DNA from: Geotalea daltonii FRC-32
GTDB lineage: Bacteria; Desulfobacterota; Desulfuromonadia; Geobacterales; Geobacteraceae
Direction of reading: 5' to 3'
NCBI RefSeq assembly: GCF_000022265.1
Contig: NC_011979.1
Span: 2,430,001-2,462,000 of the forward strand
Length of the DNA stretch: 32,000 bases
Part shown: piece by piece, positions 3-9,366 of the stretch
Numbering within the stretch: the stretch's first letter is position 1
Layout: the number at the start of each line of letters is the position of its first letter
Made by a program: the position numbers and the translations under genes
The notes under the pieces: model-generated
The model's database searches: none
What the model saw: only the letters and a program-made list of their open reading frames with translations
Told to the model about the DNA's origin: nothing

Positions 3-1103
3 GTGCGCGATGTCGCAATCCGGGAAATCGCCCCAAGGGCCCAGGAACTGGACGAGAAATCACTCTTCCCCGAACATGCCCGTGACCTTTTTGCCCAGCT
101 CGGGCTTTTGAACCCGCTTCTGCCGGCTGCTTACGGGGGCACCGAAATGGGCATAGCCACCGTCGTCCTTATTCTGGAGGAAATCTCCCGGGTCTGCGCG
201 TCCACCGCCCTTTTATTGATCGGCCAGTTCGACGGCATGCTCCCCATCATCCACGGGGGAAGTCCGGCCCTGAAAGAAAAATTCCTCCCCCGCTTCAGCG
301 GCGAATCGAAGCTTTTGACCGCCCTGGGGGCAACGGAGCCAAATGCCGGCTCGGACCTGCTGAACATGAAGACCCGCGCCGAGCGTAAGGGGGACAAATA
401 CGTCATCAACGGCCAGAAATGCTTTATCACCAACGGCTCCGTTGCCGATATCACCGTCGTCTATGCCTATACCGACCCGTCCAAGGGGGCGAAGGGGATC
501 AGCGCCTTTGTCGTGGAGCGGGGCACACCGGGCCTCATCTATGGCCGTGACGAAGTGAAGATGGGGATGCGCGGATCCATCAACTCCGAACTCTTCTTCG
601 AAAACATGGAAATCCCCGCCGAGAACCTGATCGGCGAAGAGGGGACCGGCTTTGCCAACCTCATGCAGACCCTTTCGGTGAACCGCATCTTCTGCGCCGC
701 CCAGGCGGTTGGCATTGCCCAGGGTGCCCTGGAGATCGCCATGAACCATGCCCGTGAACGGGTCCAGTTCGGCAATACCATCGCCCACCTGACCCCGATC
801 CAGTTCATGATCGCCGATATGGCCACCGCCGTGGAGGCTTCGCGGCTCTTGACGAGAAAGGCCGCCCAGCTGGTGGACGAGCACGATAAAAAGGCCGTCG
901 TCTTCGGGGGAATGGCCAAGACCTTCGCCAGCGACACCGCCATGCAGGTAACCACCGATGCGGTCCAGGTGCTGGGGGGCTCCGGCTACATGAAGGAGAA
1001 CAACGTGGAGCGCATGATGCGCGATGCCAAGCTTACCCAGATCTACACCGGCACCAACCAGATCACCCGCATGGTCACCGGCAGGGCCTTGTTATTCCAG
1101 TAG
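3..1103 (+). CDS. Acyl-CoA dehydrogenase family flavoprotein (5' end cut by window edge)
   Basis: The frame is open from the window edge to TAG at 1101-1103. ACAD hallmarks are present in the translation: GATEPNAGSD, KCFITNG, LGGSGYM and a C-terminal ...QIYTGTNQITRMVTGRALL. It is about 15-20 aa shorter than a typical ~380-aa ACAD. Confidence 0.85.
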   Translation: MRDVAIREIAPRAQELDEKSLFPEHARDLFAQLGLLNPLLPAAYGGTEMGIATVVLILEEISRVCASTALLLIGQFDGMLPIIHGGSPALKEKFLPRFSGESKLLTALGATEPNAGSDLLNMKTRAERKGDKYVINGQKCFITNGSVADITVVYAYTDPSKGAKGISAFVVERGTPGLIYGRDEVKMGMRGSINSELFFENMEIPAENLIGEEGTGFANLMQTLSVNRIFCAAQAVGIAQGALEIAMNHARERVQFGNTIAHLTPIQFMIADMATAVEASRLLTRKAAQLVDEHDKKAVVFGGMAKTFASDTAMQVTTDAVQVLGGSGYMKENNVERMMRDAKLTQIYTGTNQITRMVTGRALLFQ

Positions 1104-1149: not shown

Positions 1150-2496
1150 ATGCGCAGACTCTTCATATATGTTTTGGCCGCAGGGATGCTGGCAGTTCCT
1201 GCGGCGGCCCAGGAAATTCCCCGGGATGTACCCCAGACCACCTACAATTGCGATTTCGATCCGGCCTGCGAGGTGAGCCCCGGCATTTACGGCAAGATGT
1301 CTTCCCCCGTCAGCAGCAAATTCAAATTGTCCATTGGCGGCTTCGTCAAGCTGGATTACATCTACAACTCGGTCAATCTGGGGTCGGCCAATACTATCGG
1401 CACGGTTGCCACCCTGCAGCCGAACGGCATACCCAAATCCGGTTCTGCCGCAGGCAAACAGGATCAATCCCTGTTCAGCGTCCGCCAGAGCCGCCTCTGG
1501 TTCAAGGCCGACGGACCGCCTCTTTTGGGGGCCAAGACCGGCGCCCTCATCGAGACCGATTTCTTCGGCTCGGGGGGGAGCAGCGCCGAATCGGCAAATA
1601 TGCGGATTCGGCTTGCCTATGGCACCCTCGACTGGACCGATACCCAGTTTCTCTTCGGCCAGTCCTGGGATCTCTTTGCCCCGGCGGCTGCCTCGACCCT
1701 TGACTTCGGCCACGGCCAGACGGCTGGCAATCCTACCACGCCGCGGGTCCCCCAGCTTAGGGTGACCCGGAAGGTTACCCTGGACGACCGGAATTCCCTT
1801 AAGTTGATCGCAGCCCTGCAGAACCCCATTCAGAACACCAACACGGCCAACGGCACCCCCGGAGAGACCTGGGGGGCCAAGCCCAATGTTGCAGGACAGG
1901 CCATGTTCGTCAGCAAGGCTCTGGGGGTCGCCCCCGGTTTCTGGGGGCTGCCCATGAATTCATTCACCGCCGGTCTCTTCGGCCTGTACGGCAACCAGGA
2001 GGTGGCGGGTAATTCCCATACGGTGGACTCCTGGGGTTACGGCTTCTACACCTTCGTGCCGCTCCTGAAGTCCGCCGACGGCAAAAGCAGAAAAATGACC
2101 GCTTCCTTCGAGGGGCAAGCCTATACGGCCGCCAACATGGCCTTCAACTATGCCACGGTTAGCCCGCTGGTGGGGTCGGCGGGGGATAAGACCGGGGCCA
2201 AGGGGTACGGGCTTTTCAGCCAAGCCATCTTCTATCCACTCCAGAACCTGGGCTTTACTGCCGGATACGGGATGCGGGGGGCACGGAACCAAGCTGCCTA
2301 CGTGAACAGCGGTATCAAGGACTTCCAGCGATCCAGCTCCCAGGCCTATGCCAATGTGGCCTATGACCTGAACGCCGCCGTCAGGGTAGCCACCGAATAC
2401 CAGTACGTGAGCACCCGCTACGGCAATGTCACCGCCGGTACTTCCGATCTGGGGCACGCCAATGTTTTTCGCTTTTCGCTGATTTACTTTTTCTAG
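1150..2496 (+). CDS. Outer-membrane porin-like beta-barrel protein
   Basis: An in-frame ATG at 1150 lies 9 nt after AAGGAG (1135-1140). It has a signal peptide MRRLFIYVLAAGMLAVPAAAQ. The body is Gly/Asn/Tyr-rich with alternating strand-like segments (FKLSIGGFVKLDYIY, RIRLAYGTLDW). The C-terminus ...FRFSLIYFF ends in an aromatic residue, as in OMP barrels. Confidence 0.6.
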   Translation: MRRLFIYVLAAGMLAVPAAAQEIPRDVPQTTYNCDFDPACEVSPGIYGKMSSPVSSKFKLSIGGFVKLDYIYNSVNLGSANTIGTVATLQPNGIPKSGSAAGKQDQSLFSVRQSRLWFKADGPPLLGAKTGALIETDFFGSGGSSAESANMRIRLAYGTLDWTDTQFLFGQSWDLFAPAAASTLDFGHGQTAGNPTTPRVPQLRVTRKVTLDDRNSLKLIAALQNPIQNTNTANGTPGETWGAKPNVAGQAMFVSKALGVAPGFWGLPMNSFTAGLFGLYGNQEVAGNSHTVDSWGYGFYTFVPLLKSADGKSRKMTASFEGQAYTAANMAFNYATVSPLVGSAGDKTGAKGYGLFSQAIFYPLQNLGFTAGYGMRGARNQAAYVNSGIKDFQRSSSQAYANVAYDLNAAVRVATEYQYVSTRYGNVTAGTSDLGHANVFRFSLIYFF

Positions 2497-2504
2497 GAGA
2501 TACC

Positions 2505-2825
2505 ATGGGGTACCGAATTGCAGTGCTGCTACTCTTCCTGGCCCTTGCCGCATGCGCCGAAAATCGGGCGGTCGTCGATGGCGTGGGATATGTGGAGATC
2601 GACAACCCCACTCTTACCCTTTATCCCGGCGCCCCGGAAAAGATCTGGGTGCCGCGGGAATCGGTCGATCACGGGGTGCCATTGGGGGGGCGGTTGCTGA
2701 AGAAGGGCTACGATGCGGTGGCAAGGGGGATAGGGGAGGGCTCCGAACAGGTGTCTACCTCGGTTCCCCAGCCCCTTCCGGACCACGATCCCCGAGAAAT
2801 TTACCGGGAAAACCAGTTCCGCTGA
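2505..2825 (+). CDS. Small lipoprotein, function unknown
   Basis: AGGAG at 2495-2499 precedes ATG 2505. The N-terminus MGYRIAVLLLFLALAAC carries a lipobox (L-A-A-C). I see no recognisable domain. Confidence 0.5.
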   Translation: MGYRIAVLLLFLALAACAENRAVVDGVGYVEIDNPTLTLYPGAPEKIWVPRESVDHGVPLGGRLLKKGYDAVARGIGEGSEQVSTSVPQPLPDHDPREIYRENQFR

Positions 2826-2919: not shown

Positions 2920-4233
2920 ATGGACATCGTAAAAAACGCCAAAAGCAGCTATGGCCGACAATACCGGGATAAACTGTGCTCTCCGGAAGAAGCCGCATCC
3001 ATCGTCAAATCTGGCGATGCCCTTTGTTTTCCCATCAGCGTCGGAGAGCCGACTCTTTTCGTCCGGGCGCTGGCGGCACGCAAACACGAACTGGAAGGGG
3101 TAATCGTCAATCAACAGCATCACCTCTGCCCCGACTATTTCACAAAAGACTCGGCCCCGCACATCCGGGTAAATGCCTGGTTCACCAGCCATGTATCGCG
3201 GGAGGCGGTACAGAACGGCTGGGCCGATTTCATACCCAATTACTTCCATGAAGTACCGCGGCTGTTGCGGGAATTCTGGCCTATCGACGTGGCCGGGACG
3301 GTGGTGTCCCCCATGGACGAACATGGCTACTTTACCTGCAGCTTGTCGGTGGCCTACACCATGGAGGCGGTGAAAAAGGCGAAGAAGGTGGTAGTGCAGG
3401 TGAATTCCCAGGCGCCACGGACCCATGGCAATTGCCATATCCATATTTCAGAAATAGACCACATCATCGAGTGCAACGAGCCCTTGGAGGAATTGACGAT
3501 ATCGCCCATATCCACCATAGAGGAGGCCATAGGGGGCTACATAGCCGAGCTGGTGGAGGATGGATCGTGTTTGCAACTGGGCTGGGGAGGCATCCCCAAT
3601 TCGGTCTGCAAGGCGCTCTTGCACAAAAAGGATCTGGGGATCCATACCGAGCTCCTCTCCGACGGCATGGTGGACCTGATCCTGGCGGGCGCGGTCAACA
3701 ATTCCCGCAAGCAGACCCACCTGGGCAAGACGGTGGCAACCTTTGCCCTGGGAACGAGACGTCTCTACGAGTTCATGAATGAAAACCCGACCATAGAAAT
3801 GCATCCGGTGGACTACGTGAACTATCCCCACAACATCGGCAAGAACGACAAGGTGGTTTCGATCAACGCAACCCTGGAAGTGGATCTCCTGGGTCAGTGT
3901 TGTTCCGAATCCTTCGGCCATCTGCAATGGAGCGGTACCGGCGGCCAGGCCGACTTCGCCCGGGGCGCGAACATCTCAAATGGGGGCAAAGGCTTCATCA
4001 CCACTGCCTCCACTGCTAAAAACGACACCATCTCGCGGATCGTCCCGACCCTCAAGCCGGGTGCATCGGTCACCACCGGAAAGAATGACGTGGACTACGT
4101 GGTGACCGAATTCGGGGTGGCCAAACTCCGGGGACAGACCGCCCGGCAACGGGCGCTCAACCTGATCAACATCGCCCATCCCGATTTTCGTGGTGAACTG
4201 ACGGAAGCGGCCCGCAGAATGAACAGGATCTAA
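2920..4233 (+). CDS. Acetyl-CoA hydrolase/transferase family protein (4-hydroxybutyrate/butyrate CoA-transferase-like)
   Basis: AAAGGAG lies upstream of ATG 2920. The 437-aa product carries the family motifs GIHTELLSDG (catalytic Glu context) and SGTGGQADFARGA. Confidence 0.85.
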   Translation: MDIVKNAKSSYGRQYRDKLCSPEEAASIVKSGDALCFPISVGEPTLFVRALAARKHELEGVIVNQQHHLCPDYFTKDSAPHIRVNAWFTSHVSREAVQNGWADFIPNYFHEVPRLLREFWPIDVAGTVVSPMDEHGYFTCSLSVAYTMEAVKKAKKVVVQVNSQAPRTHGNCHIHISEIDHIIECNEPLEELTISPISTIEEAIGGYIAELVEDGSCLQLGWGGIPNSVCKALLHKKDLGIHTELLSDGMVDLILAGAVNNSRKQTHLGKTVATFALGTRRLYEFMNENPTIEMHPVDYVNYPHNIGKNDKVVSINATLEVDLLGQCCSESFGHLQWSGTGGQADFARGANISNGGKGFITTASTAKNDTISRIVPTLKPGASVTTGKNDVDYVVTEFGVAKLRGQTARQRALNLINIAHPDFRGELTEAARRMNRI

Positions 4234-4321: not shown

Positions 4322-6172
4322 ATGGGGGGAGCCATGGAAGAGATCACCGGCAGTTCCTGGACCAGGTTCATCAAAAACGGCTATCGCATTTTTCTCGGCT
4401 CCGGAGCTTCCTGTCCCCATACGCTCATCGAGCAATTCCTGGAATCGGCCAGGTATTTCATGGACCTGGAGCTGGTCTACTTGCTCACCATCGGCGAGAC
4501 ACCGTGGACCGACCCCAAGTACGAGCACAACCTGCGGGTCAATACCTTCTTTCTCGACCAGGGAACCAGGGATGCCGTGCGAACCGGCCGGGCCGACTAC
4601 ACCCCCTGTTTCCTCTCGGAGATCCCGGCGCTTTTTACGGAAGACGTGCTTCCCGTCGACGTGGCGCTCATCCAGGTGACCCCCCCCGACGCCCAGGGCT
4701 ATTGCTCCCTCGGGGTCGCCGTCGATATTGTTCTGGCGGCGGCCAAATCGGCCAAGTACATCATCGCCCAGATCAATGACCAGATGCCCCGCACCTTCGG
4801 CCAATGCTATCTCCATCAGGACGAGATCGCGGCATTCCTCAGGGTTTCCCAGCCCCTTCCCCAGGTGCCCGCCTTCGAGATGGACGACGTCACCCTGCAG
4901 ATCGGCAAGTACGTTTCCCTCCTCATCGAGGACGGCTGCACGCTGCAGGCGGGGATCGGCAAGATCCCCGATGCGGTGTTGCGCCGGCTTACCGGCTACA
5001 ATGACCTGGGGGTCCACACGGAAATGTTCAGCGACGGGCTCTTGAACCTGTACAAGAACGGCAACATCACCAACAGATTCAAGGGGCTCCACGAAGGGAA
5101 AACCGTCGCTTCCTTCTGTTTCGGCAGCCAGAAGGTCTATGACTTTGTTGACAATAATCCCCACGTGGAGTTTCACGGCACTGCCTACGTCAACAACCCT
5201 TCAGTCATCGCCCGGAACCGCAAGATGATCTCGATCACCAGCGCCACCCAGGTGGACCTTACGGGGCAGATCGTTTCCGATTCGGTGGCAGGGCAGTTCT
5301 ACAGCGGCCTCGGCGGCCAGGTGGACTTCATCCGCGGTGCGGGCATGAGCCCCGGCGGGCGTCCCATCATCGCTCTCCCTTCCACGGCAAAGAACGGCAC
5401 CATCTCGCGCATCGTCTCCGTGGCCAGCCCTGGAGCGGGAGTGGGCGCCACCAGGGGGGACGTCCATTACGTGGTGACCGAATACGGCATCGCCACTCTG
5501 CGCGGCCGCAGCATTCGGGAACGGGTCATGGAGCTTATCCAGATCGCCCATCCCAAGTTCCGGGACCAGCTCCTGGACGACATGCTGAAATCCTACAAGG
5601 TGCCTGCTTACCAGCGGGACACACCCTCGCCGGTCAAGGAACTGGGGGACACGGAGGTCATCAGGCTGGATGGGAAGGGAGAGGATTACTTTCTGCGCCC
5701 CCTGCGCCCTTCGGACCAGCGGCGTCTCCAGACCTTTTTCTATTCCCACGACAAGGCGACCCTTTTCCAGCGTTACCGCAACGAGCCGAAAAAAATGGGC
5801 ACGGCCAAGGCCTACCGCCTGGTGAACACCGACCTTAGCCGGGACATGGCGTTATGTATCGTCGAGCGTCAGGGCCCACGGGAGGTGATCCTGGCCGTGG
5901 GGCGCTACTACGTGCTGGAAGGGGGAGAAGAGGCGGAAGCGGCCTTCGTCGTTCATGAGTCCATGCGCGACAAGGGATTTGCCAGCCTGCTCCTGGAAAA
6001 GCTCATCCACATCGCCCGGATGAGAAGGCTGAAAGTGCTGGTCGGCAATGTCCGTGCCGACAACCCCTCCATGCGCCGGGTATTCGAAAAGTTCCATTTC
6101 ACCGCGGCCCCTGCTGAAGAACCGTCCGAGCTGCGCTACCTGCTCAATCTGGAGGACCATGCTGAGCCTTGA
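4322..6172 (+). CDS. Fusion protein: acetyl-CoA hydrolase/transferase domain + C-terminal Pat-type GNAT acetyltransferase
   Basis: The N-terminal ~430 aa are paralogous to the previous gene (GVHTEMFSDG, SGLGGQVDFIRGA). The C-terminal ~160 aa are a GNAT: YFLRPLRPSDQRRLQTFF..LFQRY, an acetyl-CoA loop MRDKGFASLLLEKLI, and NPSMRRVFEKFHF. The start could alternatively be ATG 4334. Confidence 0.8.
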   Translation: MGGAMEEITGSSWTRFIKNGYRIFLGSGASCPHTLIEQFLESARYFMDLELVYLLTIGETPWTDPKYEHNLRVNTFFLDQGTRDAVRTGRADYTPCFLSEIPALFTEDVLPVDVALIQVTPPDAQGYCSLGVAVDIVLAAAKSAKYIIAQINDQMPRTFGQCYLHQDEIAAFLRVSQPLPQVPAFEMDDVTLQIGKYVSLLIEDGCTLQAGIGKIPDAVLRRLTGYNDLGVHTEMFSDGLLNLYKNGNITNRFKGLHEGKTVASFCFGSQKVYDFVDNNPHVEFHGTAYVNNPSVIARNRKMISITSATQVDLTGQIVSDSVAGQFYSGLGGQVDFIRGAGMSPGGRPIIALPSTAKNGTISRIVSVASPGAGVGATRGDVHYVVTEYGIATLRGRSIRERVMELIQIAHPKFRDQLLDDMLKSYKVPAYQRDTPSPVKELGDTEVIRLDGKGEDYFLRPLRPSDQRRLQTFFYSHDKATLFQRYRNEPKKMGTAKAYRLVNTDLSRDMALCIVERQGPREVILAVGRYYVLEGGEEAEAAFVVHESMRDKGFASLLLEKLIHIARMRRLKVLVGNVRADNPSMRRVFEKFHFTAAPAEEPSELRYLLNLEDHAEP

Positions 6173-7160
6173 AAAGAAATTTCCCAAGGGGAAAGGGCGC
6201 TTCGTACTCTTTTCCCACCCCGACTGCCTTCTGCACCGGGTGAGGGAAGATCACCCGGAGACTCCCGCCCGCCTGGAGAGCATCCTGCATGGCTGTGCCG
6301 CCTTGCCCGCCTCCCTTCCCTTGTCCTTTCAGGTTCCACCTCCGGCTACCGTGGCACAGCTGCAACTGGTCCATGAAGAGAAGTACCTGCTGAACCTGGA
6401 GGCTGCCTGCCGGCAGCGGGACCCCCTGTTCATGACCCCCGACAATCATATCTGCCCCGATACCTTCCGGGCGGTGCTTGCCGCCGCAGGTTGCGCCCTG
6501 GCCCTGGGGGAGACGCTGCTGGAGAACGGGGCCGGTTTCGCCCTGGTCCGTCCGCCTGGGCACCATGCGGGCAGAAAAAGCGCCGAGGGATTCTGCTTCG
6601 TCAACCATATTGCCCTGGCCATCGAGACCATCAGGCAGCGGCAACCGGCGGCGAATTTTCTCGTGGTGGATTTCGATGTCCATCACGGCAACGGCATCGA
6701 CTACATCTACTACAACGACCCCACGGTTTTTTACTACTCCCTGCACGGCACCCCCGACCATATCTACCCCCATTCCGGCTATGTCCATGAAACCGGCCAT
6801 GGGCCGGGGGCGGGGTTCACCTGCAACATCACGCTTCCCTTGGAGACGTCGGGGGACGAATGGCTGCGCCGGTTTACCGACAACCTGGACCATGCGGTCC
6901 GCAAGATCCAGCCGGACTACATTCTGGTGGGCGCCGGCTTCGATGCACATTACCAGGACCCCTTCGGGGTCATGAAAGTGGAGGACCGGCACTTTCTCCG
7001 GGCGGTGCGCCTCATCCGTGAAACGGCGTGGGACCACTGCGGAGGGAAAGCCGGCTTCTTCCTGGAGGGAGGCTATTCGACTGCCGTTCTTGAGCGGCTG
7101 GTGCCGGAAATTATCACCATCCTCGCCAGCGGGGCTGATTCCCCCTTCTGCCCCCCCTGA
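6159..7160 (+). CDS. Histone deacetylase-family (AcuC/HDAC-like) Zn-dependent deacetylase
   Basis: ATG 6159 follows GGAGGA (6151-6156) and overlaps the upstream stop by 14 nt. HDAC signatures are present: RPPGHHA, DFDVHHGNG, GAGFDAH..DP and LEGGY. Confidence 0.85.
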   Translation: MLSLEKKFPKGKGRFVLFSHPDCLLHRVREDHPETPARLESILHGCAALPASLPLSFQVPPPATVAQLQLVHEEKYLLNLEAACRQRDPLFMTPDNHICPDTFRAVLAAAGCALALGETLLENGAGFALVRPPGHHAGRKSAEGFCFVNHIALAIETIRQRQPAANFLVVDFDVHHGNGIDYIYYNDPTVFYYSLHGTPDHIYPHSGYVHETGHGPGAGFTCNITLPLETSGDEWLRRFTDNLDHAVRKIQPDYILVGAGFDAHYQDPFGVMKVEDRHFLRAVRLIRETAWDHCGGKAGFFLEGGYSTAVLERLVPEIITILASGADSPFCPP

Positions 7161-7262
7161 TTTTCACTCACCTTCCATCTTTTTTTTCCAGCTTTACCCT
7201 CGCGGAAGCCTTTCTTCTGCCGAAATTCATGTCGATTAGCGCCGATCTTCCGCTGGGAATTA

Positions 7263-7350
7263 CCCCCCCTTTAAGAAAGGGGGGCTGGGGGGATTTCGAA
7301 TGTCCCTCAAAGACAAATCCCACTGAATCCCCCTTTGCCAAAGGGGGACC
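7263..7350. repeat. Two inverted copies of a C5-7TTT-N3-AAAG5-6 ... GGGATTT hairpin repeat
   Basis: Copy 1 is CCCCCCTTT-aag-AAAGGGGGG (7264-7284) followed by GGGGGGATTT (7287-7296). Copy 2, in reverse orientation, is AAATCCC (7316-7322) followed by CCCCCTTT-gcc-AAAGGGGG (7329-7347). It looks like a short intergenic repeat family. Confidence 0.5.
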
Positions 7351-7433
7351 GGAAGATTGACGCTCATCGGGAAACCCGTTGCCCTCTCTAAATCCTCCAA
7401 TTAAGGCCTTGCAGCACCGGCCCTGCCGGTAAT

Positions 7434-7467
7434 GTAGCCATAGGGGGACATGTCTCCCTATGGCTAC
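7434..7467. repeat. 15-bp-arm near-perfect palindrome/hairpin
   Basis: The sequence is GTAGCCATAGGGGGA-catg-TCTCCCTATGGCTAC, with one G:T position. A partial third copy, GTGGCTAC, sits at 7516-7523. Confidence 0.45.
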
Positions 7468-7695
7468 GCCCGGAAAAGGCCGCCTGGTGGCGGGGTAAGG
7501 GTGAGTCGTCTCTGTGTGGCTACAACGTGTAATTTATAATACATGGTATTGTGCTGTATTGTGAAGAAAAGTGTTTAAAACTCAGATAGATATGGTTGAG
7601 TGGTTGAGCGGGTGGAATTGGCACATTCAGTGTAATAAAAAACTGTTATATAACATTGAGGCGCATTATCCCGGCCACCGAAAAGGAGTAATTAC

Positions 7696-9366
7696 ATGGC
7701 AGACGACAGACACTATACCTACGATATTTCCATGTTCCGTGACACCTTTGAAAACGACTTCACCTATCTCAACGGCTTTCTCCGGAATACCCACCGCTAT
7801 GCCGACCGCACCGCGCTCACCTGTTATCTGCGCAATCGCCAGTGGACCTACCGCGTGCTTAACGAGGACTGTAACCGCTTGGCCCATGCCCTTATGAAGG
7901 ATGGCGTCGGCAAGACCGACATCGTCATGTACCAGTTGTATAACTGCGCCGAGTGGGTCTTCATCTATCTGGCTCCCCAGAAGCTCGGCGCCATAAACTG
8001 CCCGATCAACTTTCGTCTTTCCTATGGGGAGACTGCGACGATAATCGATGACAGCAAGCCCAAAGTCTTTTTCTATGACGGCGCCGATGGGGAGACGGCG
8101 GAAAAGGCGCTCAACACGGCACAGCATAAGCCGAAAACGGTGGTCATGGTGGATATCTTCGGTACGGCAACGCCCTTTGCCGGCGCCATTTCCTATGAGG
8201 ACTACGTGCGCGACCAGCCCCATACCAATCCCGACATCCCACGTCCCACCCATATCTATGACGAGGTGACACGGCTCTATACCTCGGGGACGACGGGACG
8301 GCCCAAGGGTGTGCCCCTCAACAACATCAACGAGATCTTCAGCGCCCACGACGTCATCATGCACTTTCCCCTCTCCCCCAGGGACAAGACCCTGAACATG
8401 ACCCCATGGTTTCATCGGGGCGGGCTCTATTCAGGTGGGCCTAATCCCACTCTCTATGTGGGGGGGGAACTGGTACCCCTGCGCCATTTCCATGCGGCAA
8501 CGGTCATGGGGCTGGCCGAGGAGCATGGCCTCAGCTTCCTTATCGGCGCGCCGGTCACCCTTTCGGCGCTGGCTGACGAACAGCAGAAGAATCGCCGGGA
8601 CCTGAGCCGGTTGAAGGGGATCGTCACCATGGGAGCCCCCCTGGAGCGGGCGGCCTGCATCAGGTTTCAGGAGGTGCTGACCCCCAACATCTTCAACGGC
8701 TACGGCAGCACGGAGGCCTTCTGGAATACCTTCCTGCGCCCCTATGACCTGCCGGACATGGCCGGATCGGCCGGTCGATCCTGCACTGACGACGACATGG
8801 CGGTGGTCAGGGTATACCCGGACCGGTTGGCGGAACCGGACGACCACGTGGCGAAGGACGGTAATGAGGTGGGTGAGGTGATCGTCCGGGCGGCGGGCAA
8901 ATGTTCGTTCAGCTATGTCAATCGACCGGAGGACGCCAAGGCGAAGTTTTACAAGGGCTGGCTCTATATCGGCGACCTTTGCACCTGGAACGAGCAGGAG
9001 TTTATGACCGTGGTCGGCAGGAAAGACGACATGTTCATCTCCGGCGGCGAAAACATTCACCCGGTGCAGGTGGAGGCGGTTCTCAACGAACATCCCGAAG
9101 TGACGAACAGCCTGGTGGTCGGTATGCCAGACCCCAAATGGGGGCAAGTGGTGGTTGCATACGTAATAAAATCTGGTGAGATGCTTACCGCTAAAGGACT
9201 GGATGAATATTGCCTGCAACACCCGATGCTGGCCAATTACAAGAGACCGCGATACTACCGCTTCGTCGATACCTTGCCGATGACAGCAACAGGCAAGCTG
9301 CTCCACTACAAGGCAAAGGTGCAAGTGCAGGAGGATTCCCAGGCCGGGCTGTTCGAGAAGGTTTGA
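7696..9366 (+). CDS. AMP-forming acyl-CoA synthetase / AMP-dependent ligase
   Basis: AAGGAG lies 7 nt upstream of the ATG. The adenylate-forming core motif YTSGTTGRPKGV is present, together with GYGSTE, a hinge region GDL...GRKDDMFISGGENI, and an A10 motif PMTATGK (Lys codon 9295-9297). Confidence 0.85.
   Translation: MADDRHYTYDISMFRDTFENDFTYLNGFLRNTHRYADRTALTCYLRNRQWTYRVLNEDCNRLAHALMKDGVGKTDIVMYQLYNCAEWVFIYLAPQKLGAINCPINFRLSYGETATIIDDSKPKVFFYDGADGETAEKALNTAQHKPKTVVMVDIFGTATPFAGAISYEDYVRDQPHTNPDIPRPTHIYDEVTRLYTSGTTGRPKGVPLNNINEIFSAHDVIMHFPLSPRDKTLNMTPWFHRGGLYSGGPNPTLYVGGELVPLRHFHAATVMGLAEEHGLSFLIGAPVTLSALADEQQKNRRDLSRLKGIVTMGAPLERAACIRFQEVLTPNIFNGYGSTEAFWNTFLRPYDLPDMAGSAGRSCTDDDMAVVRVYPDRLAEPDDHVAKDGNEVGEVIVRAAGKCSFSYVNRPEDAKAKFYKGWLYIGDLCTWNEQEFMTVVGRKDDMFISGGENIHPVQVEAVLNEHPEVTNSLVVGMPDPKWGQVVVAYVIKSGEMLTAKGLDEYCLQHPMLANYKRPRYYRFVDTLPMTATGKLLHYKAKVQVQEDSQAGLFEKV

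Follow-up and report, generated by a model that had tools for sequence, protein, structure and literature searches.

Reversible lysine acylation of acyl-coenzyme A (CoA) synthetases is the best-understood regulatory protein acetylation in bacteria. A candidate for a switch of this kind, built on an unusual domain combination, is encoded in Geotalea daltonii FRC-32, whose genome consists of a single contig of 4,304,501 bp. The window, that is, the whole stretch of DNA that was analysed, comprises 32,000 nucleotides (NC_011979.1, positions 2,430,001 to 2,462,000 of the forward strand). It contains a gene in which a CoA-transferase is fused to a GNAT acetyltransferase, an overlapping gene for a zinc-dependent deacylase and, further downstream, a gene for an AMP-forming acyl-CoA ligase. 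In window coordinates, these genes and the domains of the fusion are arranged as follows.

4322-6172, plus strand: CoA-transferase-GNAT fusion gene, 616 amino acids, defined by Pfam domains and an AlphaFold2 model.
4322-5611, plus strand: CoA-transferase domain of the fusion, residues 1-430, with the Glu234 codon at 5021-5023 and GGQVDF at 5312-5329.
5687-6121, plus strand: Pat-clade GNAT domain of the fusion, residues 456-600, with the Glu539 codon at 5936-5938 and R549-x-x-G-x-A554 at 5966-5983.
6159-7160, plus strand: class II (HDAC6/HDAH-like) zinc-dependent deacylase, PF00850, 8.1e-77.
7696-9366, plus strand: AMP-forming acyl-CoA ligase, the proposed client, PF00501 at 1.8e-59 and PF13193 at 3.1e-17, with the Lys534 codon at 9295-9297.

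Both parts of the fusion protein are recognised by Pfam, the first through AcetylCoA_hydro (1.2e-22) and AcetylCoA_hyd_C (1.7e-66) and the second through GNAT families (9.8e-11 and 1.7e-08). Translation probably starts at the ATG at 4334, because the orthologs have lengths of 607-612 amino acids. The closest database protein comes from G. toluenoxydans (96%). The AlphaFold2 model of the fusion reached a predicted local distance difference test score (pLDDT) of 91.2 and a predicted template modelling score (pTM) of 0.89. An assembly or frameshift artefact as the origin of the fusion was ruled out by more than 100 full-length homologs and by this confident model. Literature searches retrieved no description of a CoA-transferase-GNAT fusion.

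The N-terminal domain matches PF13336 (223 bits) and PF02550 (81 bits), both above the gathering score, and aligns over nearly its full length with the 4-hydroxybutyrate CoA-transferase 9vag in the PDB (2.5e-128). The last residue of its HTE motif (residues 232-234), Glu234, aligns with the glutamate of the 'vhte' segment in 9vag and 2oas, and the GGQVDF motif occupies residues 331-336. A Foldseek comparison of the model with 3gk7 and 2oas gave target-normalised TM scores of 0.92-0.96. The NCBIfam equivalog for butyryl-CoA:acetate CoA-transferase, TIGR03948, was not reached (236 bits against a cut-off of 674.8), and the domain is best classified as a family I CoA-transferase of the 4-hydroxybutyrate / butyryl-CoA:acetate subfamily type.

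The GNAT domain carries the motifs YFLRPLRPSD (residues 456-465), LFQRYR (481-486) and RDKGFA (549-554). Its top solved relatives in the PDB are E. coli PatZ (9it0, 7.6e-10), Streptomyces lividans SlPatA (4nxy) and Mycobacterium smegmatis MsPat (4oll), followed by a weaker match labelled just 'similar to N-acetyltransferase'. Glu539 was aligned to Glu809 of PatZ, and the NCBIfam model of mycobacterial Pat matched at 7.3e-12, under that model's cut-off. By homology the domain belongs to the Pat clade, which is represented twice in the G. daltonii genome, both times in a CoA-transferase fusion. The sequence-only reading that preceded this analysis had noted a Pat-like GNAT signature with an R-x-x-G-x-A loop, as well as a CoA-transferase domain in place of the usual NDP-forming domain, with the HTE glutamate and GGQVDF retained. 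The former is present at the residues given above, and the latter was corroborated by Pfam, PDB and Foldseek comparisons.

In the published scheme, bacterial acetyltransferases are divided into five types, none of which has a CoA-transferase domain, and the regulatory domain of Pat is an inactive, acetyl-CoA-binding domain resembling NDP-forming acyl-CoA synthetases (PMC8556138). The fusion resembles the Pat/PatZ (YfiQ) enzymes, which together with CobB act on Acs in Salmonella enterica and E. coli, in its C-terminal GNAT of the same clade (PatZ 9it0 being the top solved match), in the descent of its large N-terminal domain from a CoA-thioester enzyme and in its proposed client, the A10 lysine of an AMP-forming ligase. 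It differs from them in the nature of this N-terminal part: a family I CoA-transferase of about 430 amino acids here, an NDP-forming acyl-CoA-synthetase-like domain of about 700 in Pat. Moreover, the catalytic residues are intact in the window's clade, unlike those of the inactive Pat domain, and the putative eraser is a zinc deacylase of the same operon instead of a sirtuin encoded elsewhere. Judged by its domains, the fusion falls outside the type I Pat/PatZ class: its GNAT domain agrees with that class, but its N-terminal domain does not.

The deacylase gene starts with an ATG at 6159, preceded 4 nt upstream by a GGAGGA ribosome-binding site, and the stop codon of the fusion gene lies at 6170-6172, which yields precisely the 14-nt overlap that had been reported for the two genes. 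The deduced protein contains the motifs PPGHHA, DFDVHHGNG, GFDAH and LEGGY and keeps the tandem histidines, the Asp/His/Asp zinc ligands and the catalytic tyrosine. HDAC6 catalytic domains and bacterial HDAH-type enzymes are its top solved relatives. Its matches at about 1e-40 to 1e-32 include both protein deacetylases (HDAC6 domains, HDAH and the lysine deacylase 5zmp) and acetylpolyamine amidohydrolases, and sequence alone does not tell to which of the two groups it belongs.

The association of the two genes was surveyed in 43 loci that encode a full fusion of the window's clade, taken from Geobacteraceae, other Desulfuromonadales, Colwellia, Litorilituus, Paraglaciecola and one Verrucomicrobiales genome, and in 37 loci with a stand-alone CoA-transferase only. 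A histone-deacetylase-family gene is located at most 250 bp downstream of the fusion in 39/43 loci and 1.7 kb downstream in one more (40/43 within 2 kb), and in two of the remaining three loci the sequence stops too soon for a judgement. Among the 37 loci with only a stand-alone CoA-transferase, no deacetylase-family gene was found. The deacetylase also comes after the fusion in Colwellia, and the five module deacylases compared, which share 28-50% identity, all have intact catalytic motifs. In three proteins, one from the Verrucomicrobiales genome and two database proteins of 920 and 955 amino acids, the CoA-transferase, the GNAT and the deacetylase are joined in one polypeptide. A search aimed at longer proteins retrieved eukaryotic HDAC6 and other fusion proteins but no triple fusions. 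The comparison of loci identifies the fusion plus the deacetylase as the conserved unit, and protein substrates are favoured for the deacylase because these three proteins fuse such a domain to a Pat-clade GNAT.

A different possibility is that the pair N-acylates and deacylates an amine, such as a polyamine, an amino acid or the effector of a regulator, and that the nearness of a ligase reflects shared acyl-CoA metabolism. Acetylpolyamine amidohydrolases score only slightly below protein deacetylases against the deacylase (about 1e-33 versus about 1e-40), and BadL of R. palustris and G. metallireducens, a GNAT encoded in an aromatic-acid cluster, acetylates small molecules (PMC6191541). However, the nearest solved relatives of the GNAT domain, PatZ, SlPatA and MsPat, are protein lysine acetyltransferases, no amine-handling gene was identified among the operon genes examined, and a metabolite writer and eraser in a single polypeptide would constitute a futile cycle. 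Because the GNAT is of the Pat clade and triple fusions exist, a small-molecule role for the pair is unlikely, and as an account of the locus it is given only a slim chance. A BadL-like identity of the GNAT was ruled out by its membership in the Pat clade.

The A10 motif of the ligase, PMTATGK, spans residues 528-534 and conforms to the PX4GK pattern. The motif and the position of its lysine codon had been predicted correctly. The ligase gene does not, however, directly adjoin the fusion-deacylase pair: a non-coding gap of 535 bp separates it from the deacylase gene, and it has a sigma-54-like promoter motif of its own. The distribution of the ligase was examined in 87 Geobacteraceae genomes. 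An ortholog occurs in four of them, which are exactly those holding the window's (type-1) fusion. An ortholog of the cyclohexanecarboxyl-CoA dehydrogenase of the same cluster is found in nine genomes, six of which have neither a window-type fusion nor the ligase, although the completeness of one of these six is only 61%. In their place, no fewer than four of the six (G011, G012, G029 and G030) hold a stand-alone CoA-transferase about 4 kb or less from the dehydrogenase. Since the dehydrogenase is also found without the fusion and the ligase, the fusion and the deacetylase track the ligase rather than the pathway. That the fusion is a plain member of the cyclohexanecarboxylate pathway was ruled out by the existence of the pathway without it. 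Whichever of three gene orders a Geobacter or Geotalea locus shows, the ortholog of the ligase (82-97% identity) remains in the cluster; one alternative order runs activator, fusion, deacetylase, two dehydrogenases, ligase.

A second, paralogous (type-2) fusion in G. daltonii shares 45% identity with the window fusion and has no adjoining deacetylase. Next to it, in divergent orientation, lies a gene for a ligase that scores above the threshold of the NCBIfam benzoate-CoA ligase subfamily (671 bits versus 375), and a porin paralog and a TRAP transporter come after. The head-to-head arrangement of the type-2 fusion and the benzoate-CoA-ligase-family gene was found in 12/12 loci (the organism's own genome and 11/11 other genomes fetched), and the two genes co-occur in 13/14 genomes, the 14th having masked bases. 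In other Desulfuromonadales, the fusion and the deacetylase face a convergently oriented ligase gene that likewise belongs to this benzoate-type family. All fusion-paired ligases compared carry P-x-T-A-T-G-K. The two G. daltonii fusions are 0.5 and 1.5 kb away from an ANL-type gene, which is unlikely to be due to chance because positions no more than 2 kb from such a gene make up only about 1.3% of the genome. In Geobacteraceae, gene content and gene order thus tie the fusion-deacetylase unit to specific acyl-CoA ligases.

A further link between the fusion operon and the ligase is provided by their promoters. The operon is preceded by a divergent gene for a sigma-54 activator; it begins with a cyclohexane-1-carbonyl-CoA dehydrogenase and continues through a second acyl-CoA dehydrogenase, a porin-like protein, a lipoprotein and a stand-alone CoA-transferase to the fusion and, at its end, the deacetylase. 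The first dehydrogenase (locus L086, 10551-11693) scores 704.5 bits against the NCBIfam equivalog for cyclohexane-1-carbonyl-CoA dehydrogenase, above its cut-off of 650. The remaining features of the window are listed below.

3-1103, plus strand: second acyl-CoA dehydrogenase of the cyclohexanecarboxylate operon, truncated by the window edge, with Pfam N, M and C domains; the full gene is at L086 11961-13103.
1150-2496, plus strand: outer-membrane porin-like protein with a signal peptide and a C-terminal aromatic beta-signal, no Pfam family.
2505-2825, plus strand: small lipoprotein with a signal peptide and a lipobox ending in Cys, no Pfam match.
2920-4233, plus strand: stand-alone 4-hydroxybutyrate-type CoA-transferase, PF02550 and PF13336, with HTE and GGQxDF.
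7161-7695, no strand: intergenic region with hairpin repeats at about 7250-7350, a duplicated promoter region at 7440-7695 and a sigma-54-like -24/-12 motif at 7619-7634.

Compared over 250 bp each, the sequences preceding the dehydrogenase operon and the ligase show 78% mean column identity, including the sigma-54-like -24/-12 element. A 19-nt promoter motif, TGGCACATNCNGTGTAATA, has exact occurrences at these two promoters only in the 4.3-Mb genome. Matches to the sigma-54 consensus TGGCAC-N5-TTGCW are no more frequent in the window than expected (16 against 18.5), and the promoter signal is considered informative only through the specific shared motif, not through the general consensus. The stretch between the deacetylase and ligase genes contains no predicted intrinsic terminator. 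The ligase is regarded as a separate transcription unit because of its own upstream copy of the duplicated promoter, and it most likely belongs to the same regulon as the dehydrogenase operon.

On balance, and with a confidence a little above even, the fusion and the deacylase are proposed to form a Pat-like reversible lysine-acylation switch that acts on acyl-CoA ligases. In such a switch, the fusion would be a Pat-like protein lysine acyltransferase (the writer) and the overlapping class II zinc deacylase would be the eraser, both encoded by the last two genes of a presumably sigma-54-controlled cyclohexanecarboxylate operon, while the downstream AMP-forming ligase would be induced from the duplicated copy of the operon promoter. 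The GNAT domain would acylate Lys534 in the A10 motif of the ligase, which would block adenylation, and the deacylase would restore ligase activity. The CoA-transferase domain would bind CoA thioesters, may still react with them via Glu234 and would report the acyl-CoA state to the GNAT domain. The ATP-costly ligase would then be shut down once the thioester pool has been primed, after which the ATP-free CoA-transferase route would run. The stand-alone CoA-transferase of the operon, which shares 42-45% identity with the CoA-transferase domain of the fusion, is probably the ATP-free activator of the acid substrate. A system of this kind would work like Pat/CobB, AcuA/AcuC and RpPat/LdaA but would do so without the defining architecture of type I Pat.

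Several observations weigh against such a ligase switch. The adjacency of fusion and ligase within one family is partly inherited synteny, so that the loci are not independent; about three independent fusion-ligase arrangements can be counted, and the number of loci overstates their independence. Crosby and Escalante-Semerena are said to have described, in 2014, an extended motif needed by R. palustris Pat, with Lys or Arg after the Pro and Lys or Arg at +3. The window ligase deviates from it with Met after the Pro and His at +3; Lys and Arg are found at these positions in the ligases paired with the type-2 fusion and in those of loci L004, L005 and L010. No match to either ligase query was obtained in 31 Colwellia, Litorilituus and Paraglaciecola loci, and in the single Colwellia locus read gene by gene the fusion-deacetylase pair is situated among unrelated genes. 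Beside 13 distant Desulfobacterota fusions, a ligase is nearby in one case and a deacetylase in one. Finally, Glu234 is retained in 115/116 homologs of the window's clade, a constraint that a pure sensor would not obviously require. The description of the locus as a self-contained switch was therefore an overstatement: the core consists of the fusion and the deacetylase, and the link to the ligase is lineage-specific, with no match to either ligase query in the Colwellia loci and few ligases beside the distant fusions sampled. The linkage survey that had been suggested along with it gave a divided answer, as linkage to the deacetylase (40/43 loci) and, in Geobacteraceae, to the ligase (4/4 genomes) was found but ligase linkage was rare among the distant fusions sampled.

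The role of the CoA-transferase domain was addressed by its conservation in the 116 closest full-length fusion homologs. Besides the nearly invariant Glu234, Gly331, Gly332, Asp335 and Phe336 of GGQxDF are present in 116/116, and 115/430 positions of the domain show a conservation of at least 98%. Conservation is lower in the GNAT, in which Glu539 is kept in 108 homologs and Gly552 in 116. CoA-transferase activity appears to be under selection in the window's clade. A different pattern emerged from eight distant representative clusters, which Pfam confirmed as fusions: the catalytic Glu is replaced by A, P, I, F or D and GGQxDF is lost, whereas the GNAT of the same proteins retains Arg459, Arg484, Tyr485 and Gly552 in 8/8 and Glu539 in 7/8. 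A Pat-clade GNAT was detected in 167/301 sampled Desulfobacterota genomes. Among the best 150 Desulfobacterota GNAT matches, 118 are in open frames of 616-773 amino acids; all of the 13 fusion-size frames sampled turned out to be CoA-transferase-GNAT fusions, and seven of the 14 fusion genes in them are missing the catalytic Glu. Since about half of the distant fusions are without this residue and yet keep those of the GNAT, catalysis by the CoA-transferase domain seems dispensable across the family. This loss of the catalytic Glu alongside retained GNAT residues recalls the domain of Pat, which is inactive but binds acetyl-CoA, and it speaks more for binding or sensing as the role of the domain than for the supply of an acyl donor. 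Both the loss of Glu and the constraint observed at the level of the clade would be compatible with a covalent Glu-CoA state that signals how much acyl-CoA there is relative to free acid.

The supply of a donor would mean that a working CoA-transferase domain makes a non-acetyl acyl-CoA for the GNAT, for example from the pathway acid and acetyl- or succinyl-CoA, which would result in a pathway-specific mark. The conservation of Glu234, of the Gly, Asp and Phe residues of GGQxDF and of the domain at large in close homologs is consistent with this idea, as is the near full-length alignment to characterised 4-hydroxybutyrate CoA-transferases. At loci L002 and L007, where the available sequence contains no stand-alone CoA-transferase, the domain of the fusion may be the sole transferase. 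Reviews on lysine lactylation mention both CoA-transferases and GNATs, and in E. coli YdiF makes lactyl-CoA for the GNAT YiaC. The catalytically dead but GNAT-retaining fusions nevertheless argue against a family-wide role in donor supply, and Pat-clade GNATs are not known to accept bulky acyl groups, so that donor supply is considered improbable. The sequence-only reading had left the choice between a sensor and a donor supplier and had made its proposal dependent on conserved active-site residues. These residues hold up in the close homologs (115/116) and not in about half of the distant fusions; sensing is now favoured, and donor supply is conceivable for the window's clade only.

If the sensor is taken one step further, a broader scheme can be put forward, albeit tentatively and as a minority view. 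Because the formation of a thioester depends on acyl-CoA relative to free acid, a covalent Glu234-CoA intermediate might serve as a ratio sensor that gates the Pat-type acyltransferase. Writer and eraser would then be one bifunctional unit, fused in some phyla and comparable to AceK or GlnE, that would robustly switch between ATP-dependent and ATP-free activation of acids. The fusions would add a sixth type, and a very widespread one, to the bacterial lysine acyltransferases, with sensors that are active enzymes in some cases and pseudo-enzymes in others.

The main rival to a switch that acts on ligases holds that the CoA-transferase is itself the client. The GNAT would acetylate its own CoA-transferase domain, that of a dimer partner or the stand-alone enzyme encoded upstream, the zinc deacylase would reverse the modification, and the fusion would record the interaction between a writer and its substrate. 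A precedent that also speaks against ligase control comes from Thermus thermophilus, in which the 4-hydroxybutyrate-type CoA-transferase TtCoAT (TT_C1083) is the major GNAT-dependent acetylated protein, modified at Lys5 by TT_C1711 and deacetylated by the zinc deacetylase TT_C0104 (10.1101/2025.10.31.685773). The same three protein families are thus functionally linked by experiment. In G. daltonii, the stand-alone CoA-transferase directly upstream of the fusion has Lys5 and Lys8 in its N-terminal tail, and the pTM of the fusion model suggests a fixed packing of the two domains. The Thermus components are, however, three separate proteins encoded at separate loci, acetylation of the CoA-transferase relieves its inhibition by an NAD+-sensing partner protein, no ligase is involved, and according to the authors Lys5 is conserved only in Thermus (10.1101/2025.10.31.685773). 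Furthermore, no stand-alone CoA-transferase is present beside the type-2 fusions or in the Colwellia locus read gene by gene, and the presence of the fusion follows ligases, not CoA-transferase clusters. The CoA-transferase is, on this evidence, a doubtful client.

A ligase switch has closer parallels in its logic. In Bacillus subtilis, acsA and acuABC are transcribed divergently, and the type-2 fusion is likewise oriented head-to-head with its ligase. The AcuA/AcuC pair controls AcsA (PMC11532494), and the genes of the GNAT writer and the HDAC-family eraser lie together beside that of their AMP-forming ligase client (PMC11532494, PMC8556138), as is proposed for G. daltonii. Unlike the two-domain fusion, AcuA is a single-domain GNAT and not the nearest relative of the present domain, and no AcuA structure was among the matches; a Pfam scan of the operon genes revealed no homolog of the CBS/ACT protein AcuB. 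The deacylase resembles class II (HDAC6, HDAH) rather than class I enzymes, judged from its solved relatives. The likeness to AcuABC is limited to the logic of placing a writer and an eraser beside a ligase.

In terms of substrates, the closest system is that of Rhodopseudomonas palustris, where RpPat, a writer of type I architecture, and LdaA, an HDAC-type deacetylase, reversibly acetylate the aromatic and alicyclic acid CoA ligases BadA, HbaA and AliA. A CoA-transferase domain, operon coupling of writer and eraser, or a fusion is not known from that system. The window likewise lies in a cyclohexanecarboxylate cluster, and the type-2 fusion pairs with an enzyme of the benzoate-CoA-ligase family; AliA, a cyclohexanecarboxylate-CoA ligase, and BadA are both among the listed acetylatable acid:CoA ligases of R. 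palustris (PMC11619455).

What is new at the G. daltonii locus is the type of regulatory domain, the co-occurrence with a ligase, the duplicated promoter, the second fusion-ligase pair and the existence of triple fusions. If the proposed switch operates, it would show how energy-limited anaerobes choose between ATP-dependent and ATP-free activation of organic acids, and the family would offer a natural series from active enzyme to pseudo-enzyme sensor. G. daltonii would be a good test bed, as it combines two candidate writer-client pairs, one of them with a dedicated eraser, in one cultivable organism.

Some further observations were made on the fusions, the deacetylases and their surroundings. 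Three CoA-transferase-GNAT fusion genes in tandem are found in one Desulfobacterota genome (L109, G325:C7:1270601-1276160), and the same triple tandem recurs in a second (G265:C5:674261-678575). The porin-like protein of the window (1150-2496) and its paralog (L091 3172-4551, 459 amino acids) share 49% identity and have no Pfam family, and both are located in organic-acid uptake and activation clusters near a CoA-transferase-GNAT fusion. Just 3' of the deacetylase gene, at 7250-7350, there are two G/C-run hairpin units of the form CCCCC-TTT...AAA-GGGGG that resemble a repeated extragenic element, with no T-run terminator predicted. The minus strand encodes a pair consisting of a RES-domain toxin and an Xre/MbcA/ParS-type antitoxin (L086 7373-8511, genome C1:2425373-2426511), which is flanked by the genes for a third acyl-CoA dehydrogenase and for the operon's sigma-54 activator.

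A second histone-deacetylase-family gene of G. daltonii (412 amino acids; L084, genome C1:3184907-3185782) is divergent from an ammonium transporter gene, and PPGHHA and LEGGY had no match in it as searched. At another locus (L117 3948-5405), a frame of about 925 amino acids encodes a Pat-clade GNAT but gave no match with the CoA-transferase query; the gene immediately after it is of the histone-deacetylase family, and the pairing of writer and eraser therefore seems to extend beyond CoA-transferase fusions. Other bacterial proteins with a fused deacetylase domain comprise GNAT-histone-deacetylase fusions of about 760-790 amino acids, one of them named from Methyloceanibacter, and fusions of a deacetylase with a universal stress protein of about 650-680 amino acids (proteins P0188, P0192, P0201, P0206 and P0152, P0154, P0155, P0157, P0158).

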